Shown here: piece by piece, positions 1 to 30,355 of the stretch
How the letters are laid out: the number at the start of each line of letters is the position of its first letter
Numbering within the stretch: the first letter of the stretch is position 1
Source: a virus
Taxonomy: Duplodnaviria > Heunggongvirae > Uroviricota > Caudoviricetes
IMG/VR virus record: IMGVR_UViG_2534682078_000030
DNA: 30,947 bases
Strand: one strand, 5' to 3'
The notes under the pieces: generated by a model
Told to the model about the DNA's origin: nothing
Database searches by the model: none
Seen by the model: only the letters and a program-made list of their open reading frames with translations
Translations under genes and position numbers: made by a program

Positions 1-22
1 GTATATTTATCTCATGGCTTGT

Positions 23-1000
23 TGAACCGCCCCGGGTTTCCTGGAGAGTGTTTTATCTGTGAACTCAGGCTGCCAGATCATCGTTTCCGATGGAAGCATA
101 ATAAGCTTTTTCTGCTTCTGCCGGAGGAGTATGGCCCAGCCTTCCCAGCAATCGTCGATTGTTATACCAGTCCACCCACGTTAGTGTGGCCAGTTCCACT
201 TCTGCACGGTTTTTCCAGCTCTTACGGTGTATTACCTCCGCTTTGTAAAGACCATTGATGCTCTCAGCCATCGCGTTGTCATACGAGTCGCCTGTACTCC
301 CTGTTGATGCCAGTAATCCGGCTTCTTTTAGTCGCTCCGTATAGGCCAGTGACACATACTGAGAGCCTTTATCGCTGTGATGGATGGTGCCAGACGGACG
401 ACGGGCCCACAACGCCTGCTCCAGCGCATCCAGCACGAATGTCGTTTCCATAGACGATGAGACCCGCCACCCCACGATGTATCCGGCAAACACATCAATG
501 ATAAACGCCACATAGACGAAGCCCTGCCATGTGCTGACGTAAGTAAAATCAGCCACCCACAGCTGGTCAGGTCGTTCTGCCACGAACTGACGGTTTACGC
601 GGTCGCCTGCGGCAACGGCTTTCCGGCTGATGGTCGTACGGACCTTTTTACCCCGGAGAACACCGGCAAGTCCCATAACCGCCATGTTACTGCGGCGCAG
701 TTCACGATTTTCACGTTCCAGCTCTTTCAGACGCTGACGTTCAGCGCTGGTGAGCCCACCATCACCGCCCCCGGTATCCCGCTCATGCTGGCGAACCCAG
801 ACACGCAGAGTCTCCGGCGTACAGCCAATCTTTGGGGCAATGGAACAAATTGCCGCCCACTGTGAGTCATATTCATCCTGACTTTCCAGAACCATACGAA
901 TCGCCCGCTGACGGACTTCGGGGGAAAAACGAGTATTTTTAGTCATCCTGTTTACCTCTTTCTCAGGGAGTTTAGTCTCCAGGATTTCCGGGGCGGTTCA
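23..1000 (-). mobile_element. IS3-family insertion sequence (IS629/IS1203-like), copy A, 978 bp, internally deleted
   Basis: Termini match copy B: TGAACCGCCCCGGGTTTCC from 23 (right end, reverse orientation) and GGATTTCCGGGGCGGTTCA ending at 1000 (left end). It is 332 bp shorter than the 1310-bp copy B; the junction at 685/686 joins orfA codons ...RRSN to orfB codons MAVMG. Flanking triplets TGT (20-22) and TTC (1001-1003) are not a direct repeat. Confidence 0.85.
65..946 (-). CDS. IS3-family transposase, in-frame OrfA-OrfB fusion created by the internal deletion (293 aa)
   Basis: First 86 aa are identical to OrfA of copy B ([19 protein letters not shown]...RELRRSN) and the remaining 207 aa are identical to the C-terminal part of OrfB of copy B ([14 protein letters not shown]...NDDLAA). 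The programmed-frameshift window and OrfB N-terminus are missing. Confidence 0.8.
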
Positions 1001-2412
1001 TTCAGGAGGACCGCCACGAGCTGGGCGATGACATAACTCCGCGTTTTAAGGCGGAGTATGTCGACGGCTCAAAAGGCACACCAACCAGCTACATCGCCAC
1101 CTACATCGGAAAGAACCTGGACAGCCGCGCCGTGGATGGCATCGACCCGAAAACGGGCAAGCCACGCGTTGACCACGAAACCGGAAAATCAATGGCCGAG
1201 AGCGTGGAGCGCGCCATCGGCTGGGCGCGCCTTCACCGGGTCCGTCAGTTCCAGTTCTTTGGCATCCCCTCCCGTCAGGTGTGGCGTGAACTGCGCCGCC
1301 TTGCCAGCCAGATGGCACGCAATCCGGAAGGCCCGCAACGGCTGAAAGATGATGCAATGGATGCGGTACTCGCTGCCGCCGATGCCGGGTGTTTTGCCAC
1401 CTACATTGAAAAACAGGGCGGCGTACTTGTTCCACGCAAAGACTACCTGATTCGCACCGCCTACGACCTCGCAGATGAGCTGAATGATTACGGCGAACAG
1501 AGCGTACAGATTTACGGGATCTGGTCACCACTCATCGGGGAATCCTCCCGTGTGTGCACGCATCCGGATAACTGGAAACTGGTAAGACGTAAACCGGAAA
1601 CGGAAGACAGCGCCCGCGAAAATGGTTTTGACCTTCAGGGCGGCCCTGCCGCCCCTTGGACTCGTGGCAATAACTGTCCCCGTGTACAGGAAACGGACAA
1701 CAACGGGGCAGAACAGCCGGAAGAACGGCCAGCACCGTGGCCGCAGCTCCCTGACGGCGTTGAAGTGAACGAATGGATGCGCTCACTGAAACGGCACGAA
1801 CGCCGGGCGCTGATGCGTTCGCTTCGTGACAAACAGGCAAAAAACAGCAGTGATGAAATGCAGAGCTGGACACAGAGCCGCAAACAGCAGCGGCCTTTGC
1901 CTGATAACCACGAATTACTCGCTAAAGAATGGCGGGAGTCTGCCGAATCTCTCGGCCTGCATATCGGTGAACAGCAGATGCAGCACCTGCTACGGGGCGG
2001 CAGCCTGTACGTTGACGGCAGCATCATTGCACCGCAGGGATATGAAATTGTACGCAAACCGGATACCCGCCCGGACAGCCGAATCACGCAGCTCTGGCAG
2101 CACCTGAGCCGTAATCACGGCGTAAGCAGCACGGAGATCCGCCATAACCCGGTCGCCAGCTATCTGGCACAGCTGGGGGCATCAGACCCCGAAGCCGCCG
2201 CACGCCTGGCATCCGCACTTCAGCAGGATCAGAACACCATGAAAACACCCGTTACCGTGCTTTCTGACATGCTGCGCGCCATCCGCGACGCAGAGCACGC
2301 ACAGAGAATCAGTGAAACCACTGAACGCGCCAGCCGCAAAGCAGACCTGCTGCAGGGTGGCCTGACCAGTGGAAACAAAAACAGACAGAAACGGGACTCA
2401 CGAATCCCGTAA
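1001..2412 (+). pseudogene. A: Replication initiator gpA-like (rolling-circle Rep with paired catalytic tyrosines), 5'-truncated by IS copy A
   Basis: Open frame starts at the IS boundary with no start codon (QEDRHELGDD...). It contains the Y-x3-Y motif SYIATYIGKN typical of the P2 A / phiX174 A nickase family and sits upstream of the Q-P / O-N-M-L head cluster as in P2-like phages. About 470 codons remain. Confidence 0.7.
2391..2410. repeat. 20-bp palindrome ACGGGACTCACGAATCCCGT, copy 1 of 2, overlapping the gene A stop
   Basis: Inverted arms ACGGGAYT / AATCCCGT read directly in the sequence; repeated 73 bp downstream. Confidence 0.6.
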
Positions 2413-4460: not shown

Positions 4461-4989
4461 GTTTGCACGATAGTGCACAAGTTTGCACAATTTTTTTGAA
4501 CGACTTTTTGTACTTCCGGCCCGCGTGGCGGCTGGATCCGTCAAGGATCCGTACGTGCACAAAAAACGCGTTTTTTCTACGCGCAGGTGACGGGGGAACA
4601 GCCCGCGTTTCAGGGGGGTAAACAGCATTCCCTGAACGATGTCGCAGAGACACAACAGAATGGCCATATTTCTCACGCTGAGCATGAAAAAGGCGTGAGG
4701 GCTTTTGATTTGATGGGGTGAAAGGTAAGGCCGTCAAAATCGCACTGAGGCAGCGAGAACATACAGTCAACGCGGTGGGATTGCGTAAGAGTCTGACCGT
4801 CGATGGTGGCGATAAACTGGAAGGCGTCGTGAAATTATCTGATTGATACAGGAGCTGGAGAGCCGGGGCATAAATTTTTTATGCCCCGGCGAAGCAGCAG
4901 ACAAGCGAAGCGCGTCAGTGATGCGGCACCTTGCCGACCACACTTCATAAGTGCAAAATACGAGCAAAGAAATCAATGGAGGCTGTTTT

Positions 4990-5514
4990 ATGGTCATTAA
5001 TTACAAGCAGTTACGAGAAAAACGAGAGCAGGTAAAGGAAAGTTTTCGCCGCAATGAAGATCTGACCCCGCTTGTACACCTTGCTCAGGGAATTGTAGAT
5101 GCTTATGAAATCTCTCTGGAGCTGCCATCACAGACATGGACTGATAGCGACGGTAATCGCCAGCATTACGTTTCATGCGGACTGGAAACAACTGAAGGGT
5201 TTCGCAGAATGCCTTTATCTCAGATTCCTGCCTCTACCCCCAAAGCAAGGGGCGGCAATGATGAGCGAAAACTGATTTTCAGCATTGAGACAGTGGTTGA
5301 CGACACACCTGGCGAAGTCGCCTTCGTGCATACTCCTCTTTCGATCGCAATGTATAACGATGAAATACAGGTTCGCGTTAATAATAATATCGTGCCACTT
5401 AAAGAAGGTAATTCACCCTACACCACCGTTTGTGAAGCCATTCAATATTACGTTCTCTCTGAAATTGATAATCTCAAGCCTGACGGCACCCAGAAAATGG
5501 TTCAACTCTGGTAA
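4990..5514 (+). CDS. Hypothetical protein, about 174 aa, unknown function
   Basis: ATG at 4990 with GGAGG 7 nt upstream (the tracked ORF opens at 4951, but the start at 4990 has the SD). Terminated by a hairpin plus T run. No recognisable motif. Confidence 0.5.
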   Translation: MVINYKQLREKREQVKESFRRNEDLTPLVHLAQGIVDAYEISLELPSQTWTDSDGNRQHYVSCGLETTEGFRRMPLSQIPASTPKARGGNDERKLIFSIETVVDDTPGEVAFVHTPLSIAMYNDEIQVRVNNNIVPLKEGNSPYTTVCEAIQYYVLSEIDNLKPDGTQKMVQLW

Positions 5515-5519
5515 AAAGG

Positions 5520-5545
5520 ACAGCCCCATCACGGGGCTGTTTTTT
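5520..5545. terminator. Bidirectional intrinsic terminator ACAGCCCC-atcac-GGGGCTGT flanked by A5 and T6
   Basis: 8-bp GC-rich stem with a U tract on either strand; lies between the convergent 174-aa ORF and Q. The Q stop codon (5529-5531) is in the loop. Confidence 0.7.
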
Positions 5546-6575
5546 CATCAAGAAGAGCATAAGAATTAAAACGGATCACCTCTTCGCCAAGCCAGTCATT
5601 GATGTGCTTCATGGCCTCCATAACGGGCATCAGCTCGTTAATTGCATAAACCCGCGCGGCCTTCTCCACATCACCAAACGCACTTTTTTCGCCCGGCATC
5701 GCCCCCATCAGTTGCGGCGGAACACGGTGCGCAGCCAGCACATCATCACGGGATGCCGCCTTAACATTCATGAACTCATCTTTTGCGGTGATCTGCTGGA
5801 ACGGCAAAATTTGCACCCCCTCTTTGCCCCCGTTGGGCGCATGAATGAGCACGTTTTTAAATGCACCACTACCACGTGCACCCTGTAATGTTTCTTTCAG
5901 GGAGTCCATGCTTTCGCGGTTTACCTGCGCTGCACCGATGTAGATGATGCACCCGGCGTGGGATCCGTTGTCGTAATACAGTTTTCTGAACATGTCCGCC
6001 GAATGAGACAGGCTGGCCGAGAGTAATGCGCCGAGATATTCCGGCATGCCGTAGATTTCCTGGTTAATATCCGGATTCATCAGGTGGCACACTTTGCCAG
6101 GGCGAAACTGAAACGCGTCCTTGCCATCCTGCACATACCACCATGATTCAAGATCGCTTCCGCGTCGCATGTATTTCGCCAGTGCGTGCCGTAATTTAAG
6201 CGGTTCGCCGAGCATATTGCTTCGAAGCTCAAGGTATGCGTTACCGAACACAAACCAGTCCAGCGCCAGCGCCGAGAAATCCTGCCGGGAAAGCAGCGGG
6301 TGCGGAATATAGCAGCCGAGCAATACATTGCGCTTAAAGTAAAGCGCAGACTGATGCCAGGACGTTTGCCGGGCGGCTCTTGCCAGACCGTACCAGTCCA
6401 CCGGGGTTTCATACCACCGCCCGTTATCAGCACAGTACATATTGTCCAGCAAATCATGCCCGGTCAGGCGATAAGGACCATCAAAAGTGAATGCACTGAG
6501 CGACGATTCTTTCCTGAGCGCATCAGCGAGATCAATGCGTGAACTCATGCGCACTTTTTTATTTTTTCTGCTCAT
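5529..6575 (-). CDS. Q: Portal protein (P2 gpQ family)
   Basis: 348 aa, immediately downstream of and overlapping the terminase large subunit on the same strand, as in P2; length and position fit gpQ. Confidence 0.8.
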   Translation of the reverse strand: MSRKNKKVRMSSRIDLADALRKESSLSAFTFDGPYRLTGHDLLDNMYCADNGRWYETPVDWYGLARAARQTSWHQSALYFKRNVLLGCYIPHPLLSRQDFSALALDWFVFGNAYLELRSNMLGEPLKLRHALAKYMRRGSDLESWWYVQDGKDAFQFRPGKVCHLMNPDINQEIYGMPEYLGALLSASLSHSADMFRKLYYDNGSHAGCIIYIGAAQVNRESMDSLKETLQGARGSGAFKNVLIHAPNGGKEGVQILPFQQITAKDEFMNVKAASRDDVLAAHRVPPQLMGAMPGEKSAFGDVEKAARVYAINELMPVMEAMKHINDWLGEEVIRFNSYALLDEKTAP

Positions 6576-8326
6576 CAGAACTCCATAACCGTGAAACGCT
6601 CGTTTTCTCCTTCGCCGCCAATTGGTTCGTTAATGACAGCAAGCATGGTTGCCCACGCAAGGTCGCCGTGGCTGATCCCCCTCGCGCGGTCCGTTTCGTA
6701 AGTGATAAAACCGCCCGGTGTTTTCACCTTACGCACGGCGTTAAAGGCCGCGACCAGCTCGCGTTCGGCGCGATCGTATTCCCACCGCCCGGCACGCATT
6801 ATTTGCAGCATTTTCAGTACCAGCGACCGTTTTGATGACAGCGTGAAGGTGTACGGAATAGCAGCAGGGAAAAACCGTTTCACTATCTGATAAACAGCCT
6901 CCCCGTTCCCGCCCGTCACATCAATGCCGATGTGTTCCACGTTGTAGCGACACGTGAACTCTTCAATGACTCTGGCCTGTTCTTCAAACTCCAGCCCCTG
7001 AACGCGTCGCGTCTCCACCGTTCGAAAACGGCCACCAGGAACAGCCGGAGGAACCACCACAGACACAGCGCCGCTGTCGCCGTTGCCACTGCTGCCGTTT
7101 GCGTCATACCCAATCCATACCGGACGATTCCCCATCGGGCGGGGAGCAAAAGGTTTCCAGTCTTTCCAGTCGTCGTATCCGTCAACACCGCAGCCAATCA
7201 GGATATTCAGGTTAAATGCCGATTCCCCTTCGCGGACAAACTCACACATATAGAGATTGAGGAACTCGTCTTCGGTGTTTTCATCACGAATTTCGTCGAT
7301 ATCGGTGTGTTTCCAGCCGTGATTAACCACATCTTCCAGCGTGACAATTTGCCGCCACGTCCGGTCAGGGCAGATAAGCCCGTTATGCAGCGTATTCCAG
7401 TCCACAGAAAAACGCCGGCGTTTATGCGTGGCCTTTTTCTCGTTCCAGCGGTCGCCGTTCCAGTAGGCGTATGCTTCGTGCGTTTCGGTGGATGGCGTGG
7501 AGAAGTAGGTGCGCCGCAGTCCGCTGAGGGTTGCCATAGCGCCAGCCACCTTGCGCAGTTCAGCAAAGCGACTGACCCAGAAAAATTCATCAAAATAAAA
7601 ATTGCCCGTATAGGACTGCGCCGACGCAGCAGAAGTGCCGAGAAAATGCAGCTCTGCGCCATTGGAGAGGATGATTTTATCGCCCCCTTTCAGCTCCACA
7701 TCAACTTCAGCCGCAGCCTTCTGAATAATGCTTTTAAACTGGAACGCCTGACGACGCGACGCAGACAAAAAAATCTGGTTACGCTGGTAAGGTTGCGCCA
7801 CATCGTCACGCAGCGCCATCAGCAGAGCTTCCTGTGCAAAATACCAGGTCGCCCCAATCTGTCGGGATTTCAGGATCATCCTGTTACGTATCCCGGCTTC
7901 CCTGCAAAGGGTCAGGGAGTCAAACCAGCCCCGCTGATGCCACTCCAGCCTGCTGATGATTTTTTCCCGCAGTGCGGAAATCTGTTCCGGCGTGAAATGA
8001 TTTTTGAGTTTTTTCGCCCGGCCTTTCTTTCCTGCGGCCATCACATCCGGATGGCCATCATGCAGCTTTTTAAGCTGCCGGGTCAGCAGGTCTATTTCCT
8101 TAAAGTCACCGCCTGTTTTATTCTGTTTTTCAGTAAGCTGGATGAGGCGCGCATCGATGGACTGCGTGACACGCTGCACGGGTGGCGTTTCATCCCACTG
8201 GTCGCGTTTTTTCCACGCATAAATCGTGTTCGGGTTTATTCCCATCAGACGTGATATTTCTGCGGGCGGATAACCCTGCCAGTAAAGTTGCCGCGCACGC
8301 TGGCGCACAAAAGCGTCCTGAATCAT
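6575..8326 (-). CDS. P: Terminase large subunit (P2 gpP family)
   Basis: 583 aa; divergent from the O-N-M-L operon across a 120-bp intergenic region, as in P2. Confidence 0.85.
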   Translation of the reverse strand: MIQDAFVRQRARQLYWQGYPPAEISRLMGINPNTIYAWKKRDQWDETPPVQRVTQSIDARLIQLTEKQNKTGGDFKEIDLLTRQLKKLHDGHPDVMAAGKKGRAKKLKNHFTPEQISALREKIISRLEWHQRGWFDSLTLCREAGIRNRMILKSRQIGATWYFAQEALLMALRDDVAQPYQRNQIFLSASRRQAFQFKSIIQKAAAEVDVELKGGDKIILSNGAELHFLGTSAASAQSYTGNFYFDEFFWVSRFAELRKVAGAMATLSGLRRTYFSTPSTETHEAYAYWNGDRWNEKKATHKRRRFSVDWNTLHNGLICPDRTWRQIVTLEDVVNHGWKHTDIDEIRDENTEDEFLNLYMCEFVREGESAFNLNILIGCGVDGYDDWKDWKPFAPRPMGNRPVWIGYDANGSSGNGDSGAVSVVVPPAVPGGRFRTVETRRVQGLEFEEQARVIEEFTCRYNVEHIGIDVTGGNGEAVYQIVKRFFPAAIPYTFTLSSKRSLVLKMLQIMRAGRWEYDRAERELVAAFNAVRKVKTPGGFITYETDRARGISHGDLAWATMLAVINEPIGGEGENERFTVMEF

Positions 8327-12362: not shown

Positions 12363-12751
12363 GCAACACATTTAAATTCAGCAGCCGGAGCGAAAAGAAT
12401 TTGCAGGGCGTAAATCCTGATCTGGTGAAAGTGACCCGACGGGCACTGGAAATCTCGGAAGTGGATTTTGGTATCACCGAAGGGTTGCGCAGCCGTTACC
12501 GCCAGAAGCAACTGGTGGCCACGGGTAAGAGCCAGACCATGAACAGCCGCCACCTTACGGGGCATGCCGTGGATGTTGTGGCTTATATCGGCAGCCAGGT
12601 GTCATGGGAATGGCCGCTGTACGAAAAAATCGCAGCAGCATTCAGACAGGCCAGCCGGGAACTGAATATTCCGGTGGAATGGGGCGGCGACTGGAAGACC
12701 CTGAAAGACGGACCGCATTTTCAGTTACCACACGGAGCCTATCCGGCATGA
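12359..12751 (+). CDS. Endolysin, peptidase M15-like (not a P2 K-type lysozyme)
   Basis: 130 aa with SRHLTGHAVD, the SxHxxGxAxD zinc-binding signature of VanY/M15 peptidases. Confidence 0.7.
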   Translation: MSNTFKFSSRSEKNLQGVNPDLVKVTRRALEISEVDFGITEGLRSRYRQKQLVATGKSQTMNSRHLTGHAVDVVAYIGSQVSWEWPLYEKIAAAFRQASRELNIPVEWGGDWKTLKDGPHFQLPHGAYPA

Positions 12752-13155
12752 AGCTCTGGCCCACGCTTGGCGTCGCTTTCCTTCTGATTGCCGGATGGGG
12801 AACATCCATGCGTCTGTCTTGGTCGCTGGGCCGGGAGAACGCCAGAAACGAAGCACAGGCCAGCACCCTGAAAAGTACCGCCGACACCCTGAATATCATC
12901 AGCGCCGGGGGACAGGATATGCAGCAGGTGCTGGCGCAACTCCGCGTGGAAAATCAGCAACGCAATCAGGACGGAGAGGTAAGACGTGAACAGCTACGCA
13001 ACGATATTGCAAAAGATGAATGCGCCCACGCTTTGCCTGACGCTCGTTTTACTGACAGGCTGCGCAGGCACGCAGAACGCGCCACTGCCAGCGCCGTCAG
13101 TCCGGCTTATACCGCAGACGCTGACCATACCGGTAACGCCTCCCCGCTTCCCTGA
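12748..13155 (+). CDS. i-spanin (Rz/LysB-like)
   Basis: ATG overlaps the endolysin stop; N-terminal membrane anchor MKLWPTLGVAFLLIAGWG followed by a coiled-coil-like charged region. Confidence 0.6.
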   Translation: MKLWPTLGVAFLLIAGWGTSMRLSWSLGRENARNEAQASTLKSTADTLNIISAGGQDMQQVLAQLRVENQQRNQDGEVRREQLRNDIAKDECAHALPDARFTDRLRRHAERATASAVSPAYTADADHTGNASPLP

Positions 13156-13306
13156 TACTCCCACATGGGGAAATCTCGGTATATGGGGCGACCGCCTTCT
13201 GGATGCACTGGAAACCTGTAACGCGGATAAACGGGCCATTGAATTACTGGAACAGCGCAGGCTGCAACGACTGAACAACGAGGATAACAACCATGCTGAA
13301 AACTGA
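12986..13306 (+). CDS. o-spanin lipoprotein (Rz1/LysC-like), overlapping the i-spanin in the +1 frame
   Basis: Lipobox LLTGC after a short hydrophobic signal and a Pro-rich mature region; starts inside the i-spanin gene and extends beyond it. Alternative start at 13016. Confidence 0.6.
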   Translation: MNSYATILQKMNAPTLCLTLVLLTGCAGTQNAPLPAPSVRLIPQTLTIPVTPPRFPDTPTWGNLGIWGDRLLDALETCNADKRAIELLEQRRLQRLNNEDNNHAEN

Positions 13307-13760
13307 TTCCCTGCGTGAAGCCATGACCCGTTCATGCCGATGGTGTCAGGCCAACCCGGAAAAATTCACCATTTTCGTGGAGAGCGGCAACATTGAAACG
13401 ACCGGAGAAACCCCATCGTTTGTTTACCGCTATCAGATGGTGATGTTTGTCATGGATTACGCCGGGGAGCTGGACGACCTCACGCTGCCGCTGCTGGCGT
13501 GGTTATCCGAAAATCAGCCACAGTTGTTGCTCAACCCTGAGCGTAATCAGGACATCAAATTCTCCGCCGTTATCAATGACGATGACAGCGCCGATCTCCT
13601 GTTTACGCTCCCCCTGCGGGAACGCGTTCGCATCACGCGCAGCAGTCAGGGGACACCGCAGGCAGAACACCTGCCGGAGCCAAAACCCCGCCTGCCATCT
13701 CCCGAAGGCGACTGGTCGCATGTATTCCAGGATGTGACGTGGGGTGAAAGCGATGGATAA
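13293..13760 (+). CDS. R: Tail completion protein (P2 gpR family)
   Basis: 155 aa, MLKTDSLREAMT...LLAWLSENQP resembles gpR. Confidence 0.8.
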   Translation: MLKTDSLREAMTRSCRWCQANPEKFTIFVESGNIETTGETPSFVYRYQMVMFVMDYAGELDDLTLPLLAWLSENQPQLLLNPERNQDIKFSAVINDDDSADLLFTLPLRERVRITRSSQGTPQAEHLPEPKPRLPSPEGDWSHVFQDVTWGESDG

Positions 13761-14388
13761 GGCATTCACCCGCGTGGATGAAACCTTTGAGGCCATCCGC
13801 GACAGCCTGAATCAGCAGGCCATCAATAACATCGCCAGAAAGCTGGCACAGGATTTACGCCGCGCCCAGCAGGCGCGTATCCGGTCACAGAAAGCGCCGG
13901 ACGGGACCGCGTGGACACCACGCAGACGCCGCGTAACCCGGATACAGGAACGCATTCGCTTTATCTGGAATAACGAAGCACGCACGCTGAAAAACTGGCA
14001 TCACGACACGGGGAAATACGGGCGAACCATTACCGGGTGGGATGAGGATAAAAACAATATCCGCACGTTTTACCGGGATGACATCGACCGTTTTCTGGAA
14101 ATACGCACCCGGCGCATCAACCAGGACAGCACAAAGCGCGTCCCCATGTTCGTAAAACTGCGCACCGCCCGCTACCTGAAAGCCCGTGCAGATGCTTCCG
14201 GTGTGACGGTGGGTTACAGCGGCGTGGCCGCACGTATTGCCCGCGTTCATCAGTTCGGTGAGCGCGATCAGGTTGCGCCGGGCATTTTCACCGATTACCC
14301 GGTACGTGAGCTGTGGGGTATCAGCCAGGCAGATGAGCGCCTGATTTATAACACGGTGCTGGGCCGGATTGCGGAGGCTGTACGGTGA
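13753..14388 (+). CDS. S: Tail completion / virion morphogenesis protein (P2 gpS family)
   Basis: Position between R and V; ATG at 13753 with SD GGGGTGA. Longer than P2 gpS. Confidence 0.65.
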   Translation: MDKAFTRVDETFEAIRDSLNQQAINNIARKLAQDLRRAQQARIRSQKAPDGTAWTPRRRRVTRIQERIRFIWNNEARTLKNWHHDTGKYGRTITGWDEDKNNIRTFYRDDIDRFLEIRTRRINQDSTKRVPMFVKLRTARYLKARADASGVTVGYSGVAARIARVHQFGERDQVAPGIFTDYPVRELWGISQADERLIYNTVLGRIAEAVR

Positions 14389-14966
14389 GCGCTGAACTCA
14401 TGCGACTGCTGAGCAACATCATCCGTACCGGGATCATCTCTGAAGTTGATGAGGAATCCTGGTGCGTGCGCGTTCGCAGCGGCGAACTGGAAACAGGCTG
14501 GCTGCGCTGGAACACCACGCGCGCGGGTGCCTTCAATGTGTGGTTGCCGCCATCACCCGGCGAACAGGTGGTAATTGCCTGCATCGGCGGCAACCCGGAA
14601 ACCGCCATGATAATTGGCAGTCTGTGGAGTGATGCCATTCCGGCACCCGGCAAAAGCCTGAAAGAAATCGTGGTCAGCGCGCCGGATGGCGCGGTGTTCC
14701 GCTACGACGCGGACGCAGGCGCACTGAGCGCCAGCGGCATGAAAACGGCCACCCTGCAGGCATCCGTCAGTGTGACGCTGGACACACCTGTCGTGGAATG
14801 CACAGACCTTCTGAGAACAGCGACGCTTGACGTCACAAAAGGAGGAAAGATGAGCGGCAATATCACGCACAGCGGCGGCAACTTCACCTCAAACGGCATT
14901 ACCGTGCATACGCATAAACACGGTGGCGTGAAAGGCGGCAGCGATTCGACAGGAGGCCCGCAGTGA
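14385..14966 (+). CDS. V: Baseplate spike protein (P2 gpV family)
   Basis: IRTGIISEVD...GEQVVIAC...HTHKHGGVKGGSDSTGGP matches the gpV pattern including the C-terminal HTHKH motif. Confidence 0.85.
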   Translation: MSAELMRLLSNIIRTGIISEVDEESWCVRVRSGELETGWLRWNTTRAGAFNVWLPPSPGEQVVIACIGGNPETAMIIGSLWSDAIPAPGKSLKEIVVSAPDGAVFRYDADAGALSASGMKTATLQASVSVTLDTPVVECTDLLRTATLDVTKGGKMSGNITHSGGNFTSNGITVHTHKHGGVKGGSDSTGGPQ

Positions 14967-15313
14967 CAACCCGCTACACAGGAATGAATCCGGACGGGAC
15001 GGGAAACCTGAACGATATGGAGCACCTGAAACAGTCAGTCAGGGATATCCTGACCACCCCGCTGGCAAGCCGGGTTATGCGACGGGAATATGGCAGCCTT
15101 GTGCCTGATTTGATTGACGAACCCATGAATAACACCACGCGTCTGCAATGCATGAGTGCTGCCGTGATTGCGCTGACACGATGGGAACCCCGCATTGCCC
15201 TGGATGCCATCGACGTTGTCTGGAAAGCGGGAGGCCGCGCCGGGGTGACGCTGTCGGGCACTGTCATGCAGACCATGCAGAATGTTGAGTTAACCATCAC
15301 GCTGAGGGAGTAA
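14963..15313 (+). CDS. W: Baseplate wedge protein (P2 gpW family)
   Basis: 116 aa, overlaps the V stop; position and size fit gpW. Confidence 0.85.
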   Translation: MTTRYTGMNPDGTGNLNDMEHLKQSVRDILTTPLASRVMRREYGSLVPDLIDEPMNNTTRLQCMSAAVIALTRWEPRIALDAIDVVWKAGGRAGVTLSGTVMQTMQNVELTITLRE

Positions 15314-15316
15314 ATC

Positions 15317-16213
15317 ATGCCCGCCGTTGACCTTTCCCAGTTACCGGAACCCGCCATCATCGCGGAGCCTGACTTTGAGGCAATTCTGGCTGACACAAAG
15401 GCCATGATGATTGCGGCTTATCCCGCCGAACAGCGTGAAGCCGTCTCCGCCGCGCTGGAGCTGGAATCGGAACCCCTGAACGTTATCGCCCAGACAACAG
15501 CGTTTCGTGAAATGCTGTTACGCCAGCGGGTCAATGAGGGGGCACGCGCCTGCATGTTAAGCCACAGCGCCGGGACAGACCTGGACAACCTCGCGGGCAA
15601 TATGAACACAAAGCGCCTGACCATCACTCCGGCAACGGATACCACCGACGCAGTGATGGAAAGTGACACCTCGCTGAGACTGCGGGCGCAGCGGGCGTAC
15701 GATGGCCTGAGTGTTGCTGGCCCGTCAGGTGCATACGAGTATTTTGCCCGCAGCGCCAGCGGTCTGGTGCGTGATGCGCGGGCTATCAGTCCGTCTCCGG
15801 CAAATGTGACGGTTTCCATCCTGTCCACTGAAGGCGACGGCACAGCAACGGAGGCGTTGCTTAATACCGTTCGCGCCGTTCTGAATGCAGAGGATACCCG
15901 CCCGGTGGCCGACCGCCTTACTGTACAGAGCGCCAGAATCGTGACATGGCGGCTGAATGCAAAACTGTACTTTTACCCCGGCCCGGAATCCGAACCTATT
16001 CTGGCGGCGGCTGAATCGTCGTTCAGGAAGTGGCTGGCTGAGCAGGGGCTTATCGGTCAGGACGTGGCGTTGTCCGCCATTGCTGCCGCACTGCATGTGC
16101 ACGGTGTGCAACGCGTGGAGATAATCGAACCCACACAGAATATGGCCATCAGCGACATACAGGCGGCGCGCTGTGAGTCGTTCACCATCAGCGAAGGTGG
16201 GCGCAATGAGTAA
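15317..16213 (+). CDS. J: Baseplate assembly protein (P2 gpJ family)
   Basis: 298 aa between W and I. Confidence 0.85.
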   Translation: MPAVDLSQLPEPAIIAEPDFEAILADTKAMMIAAYPAEQREAVSAALELESEPLNVIAQTTAFREMLLRQRVNEGARACMLSHSAGTDLDNLAGNMNTKRLTITPATDTTDAVMESDTSLRLRAQRAYDGLSVAGPSGAYEYFARSASGLVRDARAISPSPANVTVSILSTEGDGTATEALLNTVRAVLNAEDTRPVADRLTVQSARIVTWRLNAKLYFYPGPESEPILAAAESSFRKWLAEQGLIGQDVALSAIAAALHVHGVQRVEIIEPTQNMAISDIQAARCESFTISEGGRNE

Positions 16214-16738: not shown

Positions 16739-18871
16739 ATGAGTACCACAACACGAAAATTTAAAACCGTTATCACCGATACAGGTGCCAAAAAATTAGC
16801 TCAGGCAGCCGCGCCAGATGGTAAGCCTGTCCGCCTGACTCATATGGCCGTGGGCGACGGTGGCGGCGCGTTGCCCACACCAGACAGTAAGCAGACCCGT
16901 CTGGTGCATGAGGTGTGGCGACACACTGTTAATCGCGTCATCCTGGACGCAACACATCAGAACCGCATTATTGCGGAGCTGGTTATTCCTCCAGAAACGG
17001 GCGGATTCTGGATCCGGGAAATTGGTGTGTTTGATGAGCACGGCGATTTAATCGCGGTGGGCAATACTGCCGAAAGTTACAAGCCAGCCGTTGCCGAAGG
17101 GTCCGGACGTGCACAAACATTTCGCACCATTCTGACCGTATCCAGCACTGCCACTGTGGCGCTTACCGTGGATAACACCATGGTGATGGCCACAGTGGAT
17201 TACGTGGATAACAAACTGAAAGAGCATGAACAGTCACGACGTCACCCGGATGCCTCGCTGACCGCAAAAGGCTTTGTTCAACTCAGTAGCGCCACTAACA
17301 GCGATTCTGAAACGCTGGCTGCAACGCCGAAAGCGGTTAAGGTCGCGTATGATCTTGCTAACGGAAAATATACAGCGCAGGATGCCACAACAGCGCGAAA
17401 AGGCCTTGTCCAGCTTAGTAGTGCAACCAACAGTACATCTGAAACGCTGGCGGCAACTTCAAATGCAGTAAAAGCTGCCTATGACAATGCTGAAAAACGT
17501 CTGCAGAAAGCTAAGAATGGTGAGGATATCTCTGATAAAGACACCTTTACGAAAAATATCGGTGCCTGCCGTGCATATAGTGCAGAGCTGAATATTGGTG
17601 GAGATAGTGAAGCATGGACAACTGCGCAGTTGATTTTTTGGCTAGAGAGTCAGGGGGCATTTAACCATCCTTACTGGATGTGCAAAGGCTCATGGGCTTA
17701 TGCAAATAATAAGGTCATTACAGATACAGGTTGCGGAAGTATTTGTCTTGCAGGTGCTGTTGTGGAAGTTATTGGCACCCGCGGCGCAATGACCATACGC
17801 ATTACCACACCGAGTACATCCAGCGGTGAAGGCATCCCTAATGCTCAATTTACTTATATTAATCATGGTGATGCTTATGCTCCTGGCTGGCGAAGGGACT
17901 ATAACTCCAGGAATAAGCCAACAGCATCAGAGATCGGGGCGTTACCGTCAGATGGGACAGCAGTATCGTCAGTTAATCTGGCTTCAAAAGGTCGGCTGAC
18001 CGCCCTGACAGATAATATGCAGGGGGCCACAGGTCTGGAGTTATACGAGGCGTATAACAACGGATATCCAACAACGTATGGAAATATCATTCACCTGAAA
18101 GGGATGACAGCCGTTGGCGAAGGCGAATTACTCATCGGCTGGAGTGGTATAAGCGGTGCTCATGCTCCGGCATTTATTCGTTCACGACGGGATACGACCG
18201 ACGCAAACTGGTCGCCGTGGGCGCAGCTTTACACCTCGGCTCATCCTCCTGAAGAGTTTTATCCAGTCGGTGCACCGATTCCGTGGCCATCAGATACCGT
18301 TCCGTCTGGTTATGCCCTGATACAGGGGCAGACTTTTGACAAATCTGCATACCCGAAACTTGCAGTCGCTTATCCGTCAGGCGTTATTCCTGATATGCGT
18401 GGCTGGACTATCAAGGGCAAACCTGCCAGTGGTCGTGCCGTATTGTCTCAGGAACAGGACGGCATTAAATCGCACACCCACAGCGCCAGCGCATCCAGTA
18501 CTGATTTGGGGACGAAAACCACATCGTCGTTTGATTACGGTACTAAAACGACCAGTTCATTTGATTACGGCACAAAAACCACAAATAGCGCAGGAGCTCA
18601 TTCACACAATATACCTGTTGGTCACACTGGCGCGGGGAATGGTGTATCAGCCGGTTATAACGCTGCGTTAGGTACAGGTACCACGTCGAGCGCAGGAGGG
18701 CATGCTCACAATGTATATATCGGTGCCCATAACCACACTATCGGCATTGGTGCTCATGCCCATTCTGTCATTATTGGTCCCCACGGACACACCATCACCG
18801 TTAATGCTACGGGGAACGCAGAAAACACCGTAAAAAACATCGCATTTAACTATATTGTGAGGCTTGCATAA
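16739..18871 (+). CDS. H: Tail fibre protein (P2 gpH family) with divergent His-rich C-terminal receptor-binding region
   Basis: N-terminal 250 aa align with P2 gpH ([15 protein letters not shown]...[10 protein letters not shown]...[17 protein letters not shown]...). C-terminus has tandem [10 protein letters not shown] repeats and HxH motifs. Confidence 0.9.
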
Positions 18872-19447
18872 TGACATTCAGAATGAGTGAACAATCACGG
18901 ACCATAAAAATTTATAATCTACTGACCGGAACCAATGAGTTTATTGGTGAAGGTGATGCATACATTCCACCTCATACAGGTCTGCCTGCAAACAGTACCG
19001 ATATTGCCCCGCCAGATATTCCGGCTGGCTTCGTGGCCGTTTTCAACAGTGATGAGGCATCGTGGAATCTCGTTGAAGACCATCGGGGAAAAACCGTCTA
19101 TGACGTGGCTTCCGGCGACGCGTTATTTATTTCTGAACTCGGTCCATTACCGGAAAATGTTACCTGGTTGTCGCCGTATGGAGAGTATCAGAAGTGGAAC
19201 GGCACATCCTGGGTGAAAGATGCAGAAGCAGAAAAACTGTTTCGGATAAGGGAGGCGGAAGAACAAAAACAGCCTGATGCAGGTAGCCAGCGAGCATATT
19301 GCGCCACTTCAGGATGCCGTAGATTTGGATATTGCAACGGAGGAAGAGGCATCGTTACTGGCTGCATGGAAGACATACCGGGTATTGTTGAATCGTGTTA
19401 ATACAGCGGTAGCAGCGGATGTTGAGTGGCCAGTCGCCCCACAATAA
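18871..19447 (+). pseudogene. G: Tail fibre assembly chaperone (gpG/Tfa family), frameshifted at an A5 run (19265-19269)
   Basis: Frame 1 ends at 19401 with an atypical Cys-rich tail. The -1 frame from the A run encodes the conserved Tfa C-terminus [58 protein letters not shown], ending at about 19447. Confidence 0.6.
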
Positions 19448-19490
19448 AGAGAAAAAGCCATCGATTGAAATATAGATGGCTTTATGTACT

Positions 19491-20063
19491 CTATTTATAC
19501 AATACAACACCGCTCTTTTTAGTTATATATGTGCAGTTCGATGGTATATCTTTATTTATAAAAGACATTGCACCTATTTTTACATTATCCCCAATTTTAC
19601 GTGATAATCCAATGATGCAACAATTAGCTCCGATATCAACGTTACTACCAATTTTTACTCTTGAACCAGGCATGTCACCATCTATCTGTCCAATGGTAGT
19701 ATTCTGTCGTAACACCAGATTTTCACCAGCATCAACAGCAAAATGAACAACAATTCCAGCATGATGGGGAATTGTTAACCCTTTTCCAATATTTGCGCCC
19801 AATCCAATTTCACAACCAAATTTGTTAATTATTTTACTGTTTAACTTTTTGGCTGCTTTCTTATGTAATTTATTACCATTAATATACATTTCGTTAGCCA
19901 ACCGCCACCAGAAAAGGAAATTCCGGTTACGCTGTTTTTTCTCTCTTAAAAGCCTCCAGATATCCATACGTTTCCGCCGAATTACTTCATATTTCCAGAA
20001 GTTTTTTAAATTAGTAGAGTCCCCAAATAAAACAAAGTGAATTGCCATTAAGTAAGACAGCAC
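19491..20063 (-). CDS. Hexapeptide-repeat (left-handed beta-helix) acetyltransferase, cargo gene at the Z/fun position
   Basis: Repeated [LIV]-G-x-x-x-x hexads (IGLGANIGKGLTI, VKIGSNVDIGANCCIIG, KIGDNVKIGAMSF); AT-rich. Likely GTG start at 20063 with SD AAGGAG (the tracked ORF starts at 20096). Confidence 0.7.
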   Translation of the reverse strand: MLSYLMAIHFVLFGDSTNLKNFWKYEVIRRKRMDIWRLLREKKQRNRNFLFWWRLANEMYINGNKLHKKAAKKLNSKIINKFGCEIGLGANIGKGLTIPHHAGIVVHFAVDAGENLVLRQNTTIGQIDGDMPGSRVKIGSNVDIGANCCIIGLSRKIGDNVKIGAMSFINKDIPSNCTYITKKSGVVLYK

Positions 20064-20114
20064 GATAATCTCCTTAATTATTATTTCAGACCACACATAT
20101 TATAAGGTTAAGAG

Positions 20115-20143
20115 ATTATAAAATCCTGTTGTTTGTTATTCAA
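20115..20143 (-). promoter_or_regulatory. Candidate sigma70 promoter TTGAAT-17-TATAAT for the acetyltransferase
   Basis: On the minus strand: -35 TTGAAT (20143-20138), 17-bp spacer, perfect -10 TATAAT (20120-20115), about 50 bp upstream of the start codon. Confidence 0.5.
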
Positions 20144-20219
20144 AAACAATTTTCTGAGAAGGACATACAACAGCAAGTCGCCAGTCACCTTCATCAGGAA
20201 ATTGGCGACATACGTTAAA

Positions 20220-24621: not shown

Positions 24622-24836
24622 CAGGCACCTCCCAGCACCGCAAATGCGGGTTCAAAGTATTCATCAGTAAACGTCTGGTAAAGCTCCATGTCTTCCAGTG
24701 GCGGAACGGGCGTATATTTGTAGCGAATACGCACACGCCCCTGACGTAAATCCGTGGTGCTGTTATCCACCACGTCATACCAGCACTCCGCGCCAATCAG
24801 TTTCCCGGCAGTAACCAGTGAATCCAGTTTTGCCCT

Positions 24837-24839
24837 GAT
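24837..24839. repeat. Target-site duplication GAT, left copy
   Basis: Triplet immediately 5' of the IS terminus TGAACCGCC; identical to 26150-26152. Confidence 0.8.
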
Positions 24840-24893
24840 TGAACCGCCCCGGAAATCCTGGAGACTAAACTCCCTGAGAAAGAGGTAAACAGG

Positions 24894-25220
24894 ATGACTA
24901 AAAATACTCGTTTTTCCCCCGAAGTCCGTCAGCGGGCGATTCGTATGGTTCTGGAAAGTCAGGATGAATATGACTCACAGTGGGCGGCAATTTGTTCCAT
25001 TGCCCCAAAGATTGGCTGTACGCCGGAGACTCTGCGTGTCTGGGTTCGCCAGCATGAGCGGGATACCGGGGGCGGTGATGGTGGGCTCACCAGCGCTGAA
25101 CGTCAGCGTCTGAAAGAGCTGGAACGTGAAAATCGTGAACTGCGCCGCAGTAACGATATCCTTCGCCAGTCTTCCGCTTATTTTGCGAAGGCGGAGTTCG
25201 ACCGCCTCTGGAAAAAATGA
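24894..25220 (+). CDS. IS3-family transposase OrfA (helix-turn-helix, leucine zipper)
   Basis: 108 aa, [41 protein letters not shown]..., which I recognise as IS629/IS1203 OrfA. Confidence 0.9.
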
Positions 25221-26107
25221 TGCCACTGCTGGATAAGCTGCGTGAGCAGTACGGGGTCGGACCGGTATGCAGCGAACTGCATATTGCCCCGTCAACGTAT
25301 TACCATTGTCAGCAACAGCGACATCATCCGGATAAACGCAGTGCCCGTGCGCAGCACGACGACTGGCTGAAGAGAGAGATACAGCGCGTATACGATGAAA
25401 ATCATCAGGTGTACGGTGTGCGTAAAGTCTGGCGTCAGTTGTTACGGGAAGGAATCAGGGTGGCCAGATGTACAGTGGCACGTCTCATGGCGGTTATGGG
25501 ACTTGCCGGTGTTCTCCGGGGTAAAAAGGTCCGTACGACCATCAGCCGGAAAGCCGTTGCCGCAGGCGACCGCGTAAACCGTCAGTTCGTGGCAGAACGA
25601 CCTGACCAGCTGTGGGTGGCTGATTTTACTTACGTCAGCACATGGCAGGGCTTCGTCTATGTGGCGTTTATCATTGATGTGTTTGCCGGATACATCGTGG
25701 GGTGGCGGGTCTCATCGTCTATGGAAACGACATTCGTGCTGGATGCGCTGGAGCAGGCGTTGTGGGCCCGTCGTCCGTCTGGCACCATCCATCACAGCGA
25801 TAAAGGCTCTCAGTATGTGTCACTGGCCTATACGGAGCGACTAAAAGAAGCCGGATTACTGGCATCAACAGGGAGTACAGGCGACTCGTATGACAACGCG
25901 ATGGCTGAGAGCATCAATGGTCTTTACAAAGCGGAGGTAATACACCGTAAGAGCTGGAAAAACCGTGCAGAAGTGGAACTGGCCACACTAACGTGGGTGG
26001 ACTGGTATAACAATCGACGATTGCTGGGAAGGCTGGGCCATACTCCTCCGGCAGAAGCAGAAAAAGCTTATTATGCTTCCATCGGAAACGATGATCTGGC
26101 AGCCTGA
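25217..26107 (+). CDS. IS3-family transposase OrfB (DDE catalytic domain)
   Basis: 296 aa in the -1 frame relative to orfA, normally expressed as an OrfAB fusion by frameshifting at the A run. Confidence 0.9.
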
Positions 26108-26149
26108 GTTCACAGATAAAACACTCTCCAGGAAACCCGGGGCGGTTCA

Positions 26150-26152
26150 GAT
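26150..26152. repeat. Target-site duplication GAT, right copy
   Basis: Triplet immediately 3' of the IS terminus ...GGGCGGTTCA. Confidence 0.8.
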
Positions 26153-28384: not shown

Positions 28385-28546
28385 GCAACTTAAATGTATT
28401 AACTCAGAACGGATCAACACACTCACAACATAGAGTCAATATAGCTGCTCGCTTTGTTCCAGCAAGGATGCCTATTTCTAAGGAAAAACAGAGCAGAAAC
28501 ATATGGTGTTTTCCTACCTGACATCAGGGGTGGTAAGAATCATGCT

Positions 28547-28574
28547 TTGATAACCAATTGATAACTATTATTAT
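28547..28574 (+). promoter_or_regulatory. Candidate sigma70 promoter TTGATA-16-TATTAT for the 500-aa cargo gene
   Basis: -35 at 28547-28552 and -10 at 28569-28574, about 35 bp upstream of the ATG at 28610; AT-rich context. Sequence-only prediction. Confidence 0.4.
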
Positions 28575-28609
28575 ATTAATCTAACACCATTGACATAGTT
28601 GAGGTTTGA

Positions 28610-30112
28610 ATGAACAAAAAGCTGTATTTATTCCCAGACTCAAACATTTTTCTACAATGCAAGGACTTGACGCAGGTAAATTTTTCCGAGATTACTGCTT
28701 GTGATGAAGTATGTATCATTATTACAAGGCCCATTCAGCAAGAGATTGACCGCCAGAAAGGGCAAGGTAATTCCCGCCTATCCAAAAAAGCAAGGAAGGC
28801 TGCTAGCCTATTTAATCAAGTAGTTGATTCAACTGACATGACTCTTGTTATTCGTGAACGCTCGCCGCGAGTTTTTCTTACCATGGATCTAAGCCTGAAA
28901 CCATGTGAACAGTTATCTGAACAATTGGATTATCAGGAGGCCGACGATCGTTTTGTTGGTATTGCGGCAGGGTATTGCGCTGACGATCCAGATTCGGAGG
29001 TGGCAATCATTACCAATGATAGCGGTCCACGTTTTTCAGCAATAAAACATAATATAATCTGCTATAAAGTGCCTTCTTCATGGTTGCTTCCTGCTGAGCC
29101 AGATGAAAAGGATAAACAAATTAAATTGCTGGAAGCTAAGCTGAAGCAATTCACTCAGTCTATGCCCGATTTCAGCATTAAAGTAGCCGATGACGAGCAA
29201 TTAAATATTGTACTTCCTTATTATACAGCTTTATCTGAATATGAAGTTGATAATTTGCTTTGTCAACTAACGGATGCATTCCCATTGGTTACAAACTTTG
29301 ACAATGAACAAACTACCCCACAATCACTAGAAAAAATCATCAAGTCATTTAGTCAACAGGAGTATTTCCCTGTATCAGCAGATGATATTTCTCTTTATAA
29401 AGAAAAACATTATCCACTTTGGAAAAAGCAGTGTGAAGAAATACTGAAAAACTGTCATACTCATATTAATCCGAAGGCAATAAAATACCCGCTGTCGTTT
29501 TTATTACAAAACACAGGTTATACTATCGCTGAACGTGCTGTGGTAACATTTACAGCAAAAGGAGATTTTCGTCTGTGTGGATTTAATTGGGAGATAATGG
29601 AAGAGCTGACTGAAAGCAAAAGGATTGACCTACCTTCAGCCCCTACCGCCCCCAAAGGAAAATGGCGTAGTGTATGTGGCGTAACAGAAAGAATGCCTTA
29701 CGCTGGGGGAGCTTTGGAAACACCGCTATCCAGTATAATTTCAAAAGAAATTGGTCCTTTGTTATCTCTTACTCCAACAGAAAGGGATAAAAACGATTTT
29801 TATTATAAAGAAAAGAGAAATGAGCCAGTTCAAGTTGTATCGCTGGAATGCGAAGAGTGGCGTCATCAAGTCAAAGAAGAAATATTCCCGTTGTTCGTAT
29901 ATACAGCCAACAAACCAAAGAAAGTGAATGGTGCAATTGAGGTGAGAGTTGATGCAAATAACCTTACCAATCCGGTCATTAAAACATTTAAATTAAAAAT
30001 AACTATAGAAGAACATAGTGCATTTTCAACCATAACAGAAATGGTGCAGACATACATTCAAGAGCAGAAGAAAAGACAGAAAAGTTCTATTAGCGCACAA
30101 ATCAAAACATGA
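28610..30112 (+). CDS. 500-aa protein with N-terminal PIN-like nuclease domain and uncharacterised C-terminal region; candidate phage-defence effector
   Basis: Long ORF with SD GAGG 9 nt upstream; AT-rich codon usage unlike the flanking phage genes. N-terminus LYLFPDSNIFLQ...IIITRPIQQEIDRQ...KKARKAASLF...VAIITNDSGP has PIN-like spacing of acidic residues. No Walker A or HEPN motif seen. Confidence 0.6.
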   Translation: MNKKLYLFPDSNIFLQCKDLTQVNFSEITACDEVCIIITRPIQQEIDRQKGQGNSRLSKKARKAASLFNQVVDSTDMTLVIRERSPRVFLTMDLSLKPCEQLSEQLDYQEADDRFVGIAAGYCADDPDSEVAIITNDSGPRFSAIKHNIICYKVPSSWLLPAEPDEKDKQIKLLEAKLKQFTQSMPDFSIKVADDEQLNIVLPYYTALSEYEVDNLLCQLTDAFPLVTNFDNEQTTPQSLEKIIKSFSQQEYFPVSADDISLYKEKHYPLWKKQCEEILKNCHTHINPKAIKYPLSFLLQNTGYTIAERAVVTFTAKGDFRLCGFNWEIMEELTESKRIDLPSAPTAPKGKWRSVCGVTERMPYAGGALETPLSSIISKEIGPLLSLTPTERDKNDFYYKEKRNEPVQVVSLECEEWRHQVKEEIFPLFVYTANKPKKVNGAIEVRVDANNLTNPVIKTFKLKITIEEHSAFSTITEMVQTYIQEQKKRQKSSISAQIKT

Positions 30113-30355
30113 GGGTGTACTCAAATAATACAATGCTATAGTAAATCTATAAGTGCATAACTATTTCCTGATCTTTTCCCAAAATAGATGACAGGATAAA
30201 AAACATTCCAATCTTTTACAGGCTTTGGATAAATCGTATCAAAGCCTATTTCTTCAAGAGTTAAATCACCGCTTTTCGCTCGAAACGGACTGGCTGTTGG
30301 AGTATGAGCCAGAACAACTTAGAATAGCCCCTGCACTACGTTAAGGGAGGTCGCT

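Follow-up and report, generated by a model that had tools for sequence, protein, structure and literature searches.

Two IS629/IS1203 copies in a P88-like prophage

The window, by which we mean the whole 30,947-nucleotide stretch of DNA analysed here, comes from Shiga-toxin-producing E. coli O111 and is a prophage of the P2 family and P88 type (Xuanwuvirus), located beside btuC. Between gpA and the hok-like end it is collinear with phage P88, and it contains two copies of an insertion sequence (IS) in inverted orientation: copy A, which lies beside a truncated gpA, and copy B, which interrupts the tail sheath gene. Features of the two copies and their surroundings, in window coordinates:

1-22, plus strand: left flank, 22 nt at the start of the window that belong to a small membrane-protein gene resembling P88 gp07, which follows the DUF4754 gene
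23-1000, minus strand: copy A, an IS629/IS1203 element of 978 bp with a 332-bp internal deletion, both terminal inverted repeats intact and the sequence 100% identical to copy B
23-47, minus strand: IRR of copy A, its orfB-side terminus (an imperfect inverted repeat of about 25 bp), adjoining the truncated early region; this is the end at which flanking DNA is lost
65-946, minus strand: in-frame orfA-orfB fusion ORF of copy A, 293 aa, OrfA residues 1-87 followed by OrfB residues 91-296
685-687: internal deletion junction of copy A, GTAAC/ATGGCG in IS orientation, position 686 being a single C present in both arms
976-1000, minus strand: IRL of copy A, its orfA-side terminus, adjoining gpA nt 1400
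1001-2412, plus strand: remnant of gpA (replication endonuclease), the 3' ~1.4 kb of the gene, its first 1381-1399 nt missing
24837-24839 and 26150-26152: left and right copies of the target-site duplication of copy B, GAT
24840-26149, plus strand: copy B, a full-length IS629/IS1203 of 1310 bp, the reference for the deletion in copy A
24894-25220, plus strand: orfA of copy B, 108 aa, phase 0
25155-25486, plus strand: the 332-bp segment of copy B that is missing from copy A
25175-25291, plus strand: ALIL programmed-frameshift pseudoknot (Rfam RF01497), in copy B only
25217-26107, plus strand: orfB of copy B, 296 aa, phase -1

A repeat finder reported two arms that are 100% complementary between the copies, 23-686 with 25486-26149 and 686-1006 with 24834-25154, and a base-by-base comparison resolved them into a 315-nt prefix and a 664-nt suffix whose overlap is one ambiguous C. 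Copy A is copy B minus IS nt 316-647; the other 978 nt are 100% identical, an agreement far beyond chance. The original prediction placed a 332-bp deletion at 25155-25486, and base-by-base alignment puts it exactly there. It also held that the end of orfA, the frameshift window and the start of orfB had been lost, and all three fall inside this segment: it takes in the 3' end of orfA, both candidate slippery sites and orfB codons 1-90, and contains the ALIL pseudoknot as well.

The tips of copy A read TGAACCGCCCCGG...TCCTGGAGA, the same as the ends of copy B. IRL and IRR match at 22 of 25 positions, and the terminal inverted repeats are imperfect with 5'-TG...CA-3' tips, as is characteristic of the IS3 family. 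The flanks TGT and TTC share no 3- or 4-bp duplication of the kind that IS3-family insertions carry; these flanks, and the GAT/GAT flanks of copy B, read in the sequence as had been claimed.

We looked for direct repeats at the endpoints of the internal deletion, and the sequence comparison found only one shared C. Slippage between repeats is unsupported as the origin of the deletion, the microhomology being 1 nt only. The 332 bp were probably removed by illegitimate recombination, and a microhomology of this length points to no particular pathway.

Identity of the element

We assign copy A to IS629/IS1203 (IS3 family, IS51 group) by descent and sequence. The full-length IS that occupies the copy A locus in strain 11128 is annotated by PGAP as 'IS3-like element IS1203 family transposase' with a programmed frameshift; the N-terminus of the copy A product, its OrfA part, matches PDB 2RN7 ('IS629 orfA', E = 3e-50); and the NCBIfam IS3 equivalog model NF033516 scores 258 bits, above its curated cut-off of 160. 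The Rfam ALIL pseudoknot model RF01497 scores 121.5 bits in copy B and has no match in copy A. Instead of the two overlapping ORFs typical of the IS3 family, copy A has one ORF of 293 aa and no frameshift signal. Its departures from the family in this respect and in the target duplication come solely from secondary deletions.

The 293-aa fused ORF

An in-frame OrfA-OrfB chimera of 293 aa had been predicted for copy A, and the ORF at 65-946 indeed reads directly from OrfA into OrfB at the deletion junction, where the protein sequence is RRSN/MAVMG. It corresponds to the PGAP-annotated 404-aa OrfAB without residues 88-198 (111 aa), and the same residues are missing for either candidate slip site of the full-length element, UUUUG near 25181, just upstream of the pseudoknot, or A6 at 25212; both sites are deleted in copy A. 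The chimera keeps the native IS promoter and start codon. That the fusion is in frame is unremarkable and needs no selective explanation, since about one third of random orfA-orfB joins would be in frame.

Pfam places HTH_Tnp_1 at residues 1-87 of the chimera and rve/rve_3 at 124-275 (rve, E = 1.3e-27; rve_3, E = 1.7e-11), and the putative DDE motifs ADFTY, HSDKG and MAESIN stand at positions 132, 190 and 226. HTH_21, which Pfam finds at residues 47-104 of full-length OrfB (E = 3.7e-18), is absent from the Pfam matches of the chimera. On the NCBIfam IS3 model, which has 369 positions, OrfA accounts for 1-86 and OrfB for 93-369, and the C-terminal block of the chimera starts only at 175, leaving conserved family-profile positions ~87-174 of 369 missing. 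The leucine zipper heptads, which we assigned by inspection, are L76, L83, L90 and F97; the deletion begins after N87, and the chimera loses L90 and F97, the distal half of the zipper. The original prediction was right that the DNA-binding N-terminus and the catalytic core are kept, but the loss is not limited to the OrfA/OrfAB balance, as half of the zipper and HTH_21 are also gone.

In RefSeq the 293-aa ORF is labelled only 'IS3 family transposase'. A protein search for recurrent short OrfA-OrfB fusions found none among the 120 matches listed, which are saturated by near-identical IS1203 proteins of 383-436 aa. The homologues collected are all more than 88% identical.

Two alleles at one locus in O111 genomes

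We searched 5,426 complete RefSeq E. coli genomes with junction-spanning queries. The left IS/flank junction was found in 38 genomes and the right IS/gpA junction in 39, and the internal deletion junction occurs in 31 of these 39, once in each and always on the chromosome, with matching accession lists. The remaining eight have a full-length IS at the same site. Spacing between the outer junctions is 978 bp in all 31 deleted genomes and 1310 bp in seven others (11128, 2015C-3101, FWSEC0005, 99.1145, TW05614, 8234 and SF4-1), and the eighth full-length strain, SF26 102-1, has the same right junction. Serotypes, where recorded, are O111:H8, O111:NM/H- or O111:H2, the remaining records giving a strain name only. 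A wider apparent adjacency of IS and gpA, in 271 genomes at 80% coverage or more, came from joining separate matches, and a tighter query gave only the 39. We could also rule out an assembly artefact as the source of copy A, the deletion junction being present in 31 independently assembled complete genomes.

The IS in strain 11128 is flanked by sequence that is base-for-base that of the window, and the ~4 kb on each side of the IS are 99.9-100% identical in all strains compared, too similar for a tree. Because an IS1203 of the full 1310 bp occupies the very same site in eight sister O111 genomes, copy A is an in-situ deletion derivative of a full-length IS, as the original prediction proposed in preference to a shorter kind of IS. 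The simplest order of events, by parsimony, is that the full-length element came first and that the deletion followed and was inherited by a sublineage.

It is scarcely credible that copy A is instead a distinct, naturally shorter IS species, or that the full-length allele is secondary, made by gene conversion of a deleted ancestor. Nothing speaks for a separate species, which is effectively refuted: copy A matches copy B at every one of 978 nt and is interrupted by a single clean junction, full-length elements with identical flanks exist in eight genomes, and the short form occurs at one locus only. Gene conversion is mechanistically possible in genomes with at least 34 IS copies to act as donors, but a private SNP, located in the segment lost from copy A and not present in copy B, unites the full-length elements at this locus in 11128 and SF26 102-1, which argues against it.

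Loss of phage DNA and of the target duplication

The sequences that flank copy A are 3756 bp apart in vB_EcoM-569R5 and 4381 bp apart in P88, both intact relatives. The stretch lost from the window comprises the first 1381 nt of the 2823-nt gpA and, between gpA and the DUF4754 gene, several small early genes. A further comparison is provided by the O111:H- strain 95NR1, where this prophage occupies the same position in the chromosome with 99.95-99.98% identity in the flanks, and where gpA is IS-free and intact (2841 nt); the site there reads GATATTGCCA/TTCAGGAGG, so that gpA nt 1399 is the last base before the junction with the IS. Collinearity with 569R5, P88 and 95NR1 ends at the last base before each IS end, on the left exactly at window position 22. 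Copy A lacks a target duplication because the IS stands in place of 3.8-4.4 kb of phage DNA, of which ~1.4 kb is the beginning of gpA; the earlier reading of the missing duplication as the mark of an IS-associated deletion is borne out by the 3756 or 4381 bp replaced and by the intact gpA of 95NR1. Such a state is unremarkable for this element, since in O157 a target duplication accompanies only 21 of 47 IS629 sites (PMC3271280).

We also considered an inversion between copies A and B as the cause of the missing duplication. The P88 tail operon is natively on the minus strand and nothing is inverted between the two IS copies, so this collinearity with P88 rules an inversion out; it is further ruled out by copy B having a duplication of its own and by the junction spacing of 978 or 1310 bp in all 38 genomes.

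The right junction, between IRL and gpA, is invariant in all 39 genomes, and in SF26 102-1 a further 706 bp have been lost at the IRR end, where the IS adjoins a truncated integrase gene. Because the IRL side is invariant and the IRR side has lost 706 bp more, an adjacent deletion proceeding from the IRR end is the most likely mechanism. IEE is present in O111:H8, and IEE-dependent deletions adjoining IS629 range from a few nt to more than 40 kb (PMC9943667); the iee gene is absent from the window.

The same outcome, one IS with two unrelated flanks, could have been produced if two IS629 copies in direct repeat, the first close to the DUF4754 gene and the second within gpA, had recombined homologously, deleting the intervening 3.8-4.4 kb and leaving a hybrid IS. 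The setting is a suitable one, as these genomes are crowded with IS629 and prophages are its preferred targets, accounting for 62% of O157 sites (PMC3271280). We nevertheless regard this route as unlikely, though worth keeping in view: the two-copy intermediate was seen in 0 of 5,426 genomes, adjacency of the IS to gpA is confined to the 39, and the same IS end lost its further 706 bp in SF26 102-1 with no second IS seen. An adjacent deletion from the IRR end is the route that we prefer.

The prophage is decayed and dead, and the effects of copy A would be chiefly structural, in that it helps to lock the prophage in that state.

Mobility of IS629 and of the deleted element

The P88 alignments on either side of copy B overlap by exactly 3 bp, which are the GAT duplication. 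This exact overlap, together with an intact empty site in O111 relatives, means that the duplication is no chance match. The junction between copy B and the sheath gene was found in 0 of 5,426 complete RefSeq E. coli genomes, and in the O111 relatives the reconstructed empty site is intact at the expected distance of 23.84 kb from the copy A junction. By these sequence comparisons, copy B is a private, recent and simple insertion in the window's strain, which already carried the chimera. IS629 therefore still transposes alongside the chimera, and it is reported to gain copies (as IS1203) even inside one O111 outbreak clone (PMC6602927). The O111 chromosomes with an IS at the copy A locus carry from 34 to at least 40 IS629-type left ends.

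The deleted element gives a different picture. Across the 5,426 complete genomes its junction was never found twice in a genome and never outside the copy A locus, and all 24 of the 24 contigs that we read encoding the exact 293-aa protein have the same neighbours. Daughter copies of the deleted element, whether self-mobilised or mobilised in trans, were detected neither in the 31 genomes nor on the 24 contigs. Their absence argues for immobility, with a strength that is moderate at best, as the clade is young and IS3-family transposases prefer to act in cis. Nor does copy A resemble a MITE-like non-autonomous derivative mobilised in trans, which would be dispersed in several copies: its ends are intact, but in the complete genomes and on the 24 contigs it is a single copy at a single locus.

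Function of the chimera

With HTH_21 entirely gone and the zipper cut down to its proximal half, the chimera is unlikely to be active and most probably makes no working transposase; by analogy with IS911, it would not assemble on IS ends. According to PMC2909936 and PMC1636345, the N-terminal DNA-binding module of IS911 consists of the HTH, the leucine zipper and a multimerisation region, M, and loss of the zipper or of M destroys specific end binding (Haren et al., 1998, 2000). The argument is carried over to IS629 from another IS3 subgroup, and the IS629 HTH_21 region would be the equivalent of the IS911 M region by position.

It is very improbable that the in-frame fusion is, on the contrary, a constitutively active transposase. 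The idea has an obvious attraction, as a single ORF joins the DNA-binding N-terminus to an intact DDE core and engineered OrfAB fusions of IS911 and IS629, which bypass frameshifting, are active transposases. Those fusions keep every residue, however, while the chimera lacks 111, equivalent to the conserved family-profile positions ~87-174; no daughter copies exist in the 31 genomes or on the 24 contigs encoding the exact protein, and there is no inversion or rearrangement at the locus.

Another role would be that of an inhibitor, in which the expressed chimera acts in trans on IS629 transposition or excision much as OrfA or OrfB may, its HTH occupying IS ends or its presence poisoning OrfAB multimers. 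OrfA alone depressed IS629 excision (3.8e-9 vs 7.8e-7; bioRxiv 10.1101/2023.06.07.543989), IS629 OrfB is reported to lower transposition (Chen & Hu 2006, as cited in PMC5771124), the chimera has the HTH of OrfA and a complete catalytic core from OrfB, preceded by the IS's own promoter and start codon, and the deleted allele is in the majority (31 of 39 genomes). We consider inhibition improbable all the same. The missing half zipper and M/HTH_21 region are, in IS911, what is needed for end binding and for OrfA-OrfAB interaction; counts of IS629-type ends, which stop at 40 per record, do not visibly differ between the deleted allele (35 to at least 40) and the full-length one (34 to at least 40); and the 31:8 allele ratio is explicable by clonal sampling. 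A strong dominant-negative role in particular is disfavoured, because IS629 inserted anew, as copy B, when the chimera was already present in the strain.

More speculative again is the notion that the expressed chimera is a natural trans-modulator of IS629, for example a partial inhibitor combining the OrfA HTH with the OrfB core, and that it spread by selection. We think this a long shot; if true, its spread to most of the sampled O111:H8 genomes would reflect selection for damping IS- and IEE-driven instability and not drift.

A three-step history

Copy A is very probably an IS629/IS1203 relic, defective and immobile, within a P88-like prophage that has itself decayed, and its history has three steps. 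First, an IS629 ended up in gpA in the ancestor of the clade represented by the 39 complete O111 genomes, a step recorded in the right junction that they share. Second, the ~3.8-4.4 kb adjoining IRR was lost and one copy of the target duplication with it; the loss itself is evident from the intact relatives, and its mechanism was most likely a transposase/IEE-type adjacent deletion, the alternative being recombination of two directly repeated IS629 copies. Third, and by parsimony later, a single illegitimate recombination with 1 nt of microhomology removed the 332 bp in a sublineage now represented by 31 of the 39 genomes, where the junction can be read directly, and chance restoration of the frame left one 293-aa protein encoded from the IS's own promoter.

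The general importance of this is small, as EHEC genomes routinely contain defective IS copies and deletions next to an IS. Defective IS629 copies have already been described, and copy A is an ordinary one, a dead IS in a dead prophage, although our literature search found no paper describing this allele. Its uses are more local. The 332-bp deletion is a clean and irreversible lineage marker that divides 31 deleted from 8 full-length O111 genomes, and the natural pair of alleles at one locus is suited to testing the need for the zipper and HTH_21 in IS629. For annotation, the label 'IS3 family transposase' hides the fact that the 293-aa ORF is the product of a deletion. The locus also illustrates the stepwise killing of a prophage by IS elements, with clade-wide loss of the gpA 5' part and of early genes, a further 706-bp loss in one strain, and a new IS in the tail sheath gene of the window's strain.

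Comparison with known systems

Copy B is a canonical IS629/IS1203, with orfA and orfB in phases 0 and -1, the ALIL pseudoknot and a 3-bp target duplication. Relative to the 1310-bp element, copy A is identical in its ends, the orfA start, the DDE core and all other retained sequence, and differs in having no frameshift signal, no separate OrfA or OrfB, no HTH_21 and no target duplication.

The loss of flanking DNA resembles the IS629-adjacent deletions produced by transposase and IEE in EHEC, which start at an IS terminus and retain the IS (Kusumoto et al., 2011; PMC9943667). Copy A likewise has no target duplication, and the size of its flank loss falls within the reported range; IEE may have played a part here.

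Truncated IS629 copies are known from O55 and O157, among them a chromosomal copy with a 'unique internal deletion' in O55:H7 CB9615 (PMC3271280). Like copy A, they are defective and lie in mobile or prophage regions of EHEC-lineage genomes; as described, they are set apart by different deletions, another serotype and the lack of any reported in-frame fusion.

At the level of the protein, the nearest parallels are OrfAB truncations and LZ-M mutants of IS911, which also lose part of the zipper and the multimerisation region that lies between the HTH and the core; these are laboratory constructs of another IS3 subgroup. Engineered OrfAB fusions of IS911 and IS629/IS1203v share with the chimera a single ORF that is read without frameshifting, but they were made by adding one base, keep the full amino acid sequence and are active, while the natural chimera drops 111 residues.

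Copy B and the IS629 target sequence

The full-length IS629/IS1203 element, copy B, interrupts the tail sheath gene:

24840-26149: copy B insertion in the tail sheath gene

Because this insertion was found in none of 5,426 complete RefSeq E. coli genomes (0/5,426) and the empty tail sheath site is unbroken in O111 relatives, copy B is a very recent IS629 transposition, private to the window's strain. Its flank at the IRL (orfA-side) end resembles that of copy A, the internally deleted element, with 5 of 6 positions matching between window positions 1001-1006 and 24834-24839 (CCTGAA|TGAACC at copy A, CCTGAT|TGAACC at copy B), and at both copies the IRL-side flank closes on a sequence that nearly repeats TGAA, the tip of the IS. 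A 5/6 match is expected by chance about 0.5% of the time for a hexamer specified beforehand. Sequence specificity of the IS629 target is not reported in the literature, and the likeness of the two flanks may reflect chance or a weak target preference.

The copy A locus and its flanks in other O111 strains

Two O111 strains carry different arrangements of this region, SF26 102-1 with a full-length IS at the copy A locus:

L005 (NZ_CP077447.1) 4771-6080: full-length IS at the copy A locus, SF26 102-1
L011 (NZ_CP021339.1) 12413-16192: btuC prophage of O111:H- 95NR1, compared with sequence L002 at about 8096-8268

An additional 706 bp of flank is gone from the IRR (orfB) side of the IS in SF26 102-1, removing the DUF4761, hypothetical and DUF4754 genes and leaving the truncated integrase gene directly beside the IS. 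The same btuC prophage in 95NR1, whose gpA (replication endonuclease) gene is complete and carries no IS, is missing the DUF4761-DUF4754 genes as well. In both 95NR1 and the IS-carrying O111 lineage, repressor C and cox are absent and int is truncated; the two part at the identical nucleotide within the integrase gene (L002:8096), and this common breakpoint is joined to different partners. An earlier IS that has since excised may have left the breakpoint, or it may stem from exchange with a second prophage of the P88 type.

Close to the 3' end of the window's gpA remnant, positions 2377-2381 form an A5 run, against A6 in all seven other O111 genomes compared (7/7). The shorter run is an indel private to the window's strain or else an error in sequencing the homopolymer.

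Divergence from phage P88

No alignment to P88 was possible across window positions 17906-20213. Three features lie in or near this stretch:

17266-17491: 94-nt direct repeat, 73% identity, 132-nt spacing
19214-19410 (+): match to the Rfam sRNA-candidate family IS009, 182 bits (gathering score 117)
19491-20096 (-): 201-aa ORF with weak, sub-threshold hexapeptide-repeat Pfam matches

The direct repeat, encoding the repeated protein motif [12 protein letters not shown]..ETLAAT, lies within the 710-aa tail-fibre ORF and is an ordinary tail-fibre repeat. The tail-fibre assembly ORF (18871-19401) shares its 3' end with the IS009 match. The below-threshold matches of the 201-aa ORF are acyltransferase-like, and in P88 this position holds a DNA invertase together with alternative tail-fibre genes.

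The window also carries an insertion relative to P88, with a single ORF:

28396-30315: insertion of about 1.9 kb, flanked by the gpD-like tail gene on one side and ogr on the other
28610-30112 (+): sole ORF of the insertion, 500 aa

PADLOC returned no matches for this ORF, which has an N-terminal PIN_4 domain (E = 4.5e-8). The gpD-like/ogr interval in which it lies is a hotspot for defence cargo in the P2 family, which makes the ORF a candidate for an uncharacterised gene of defence or toxin function.
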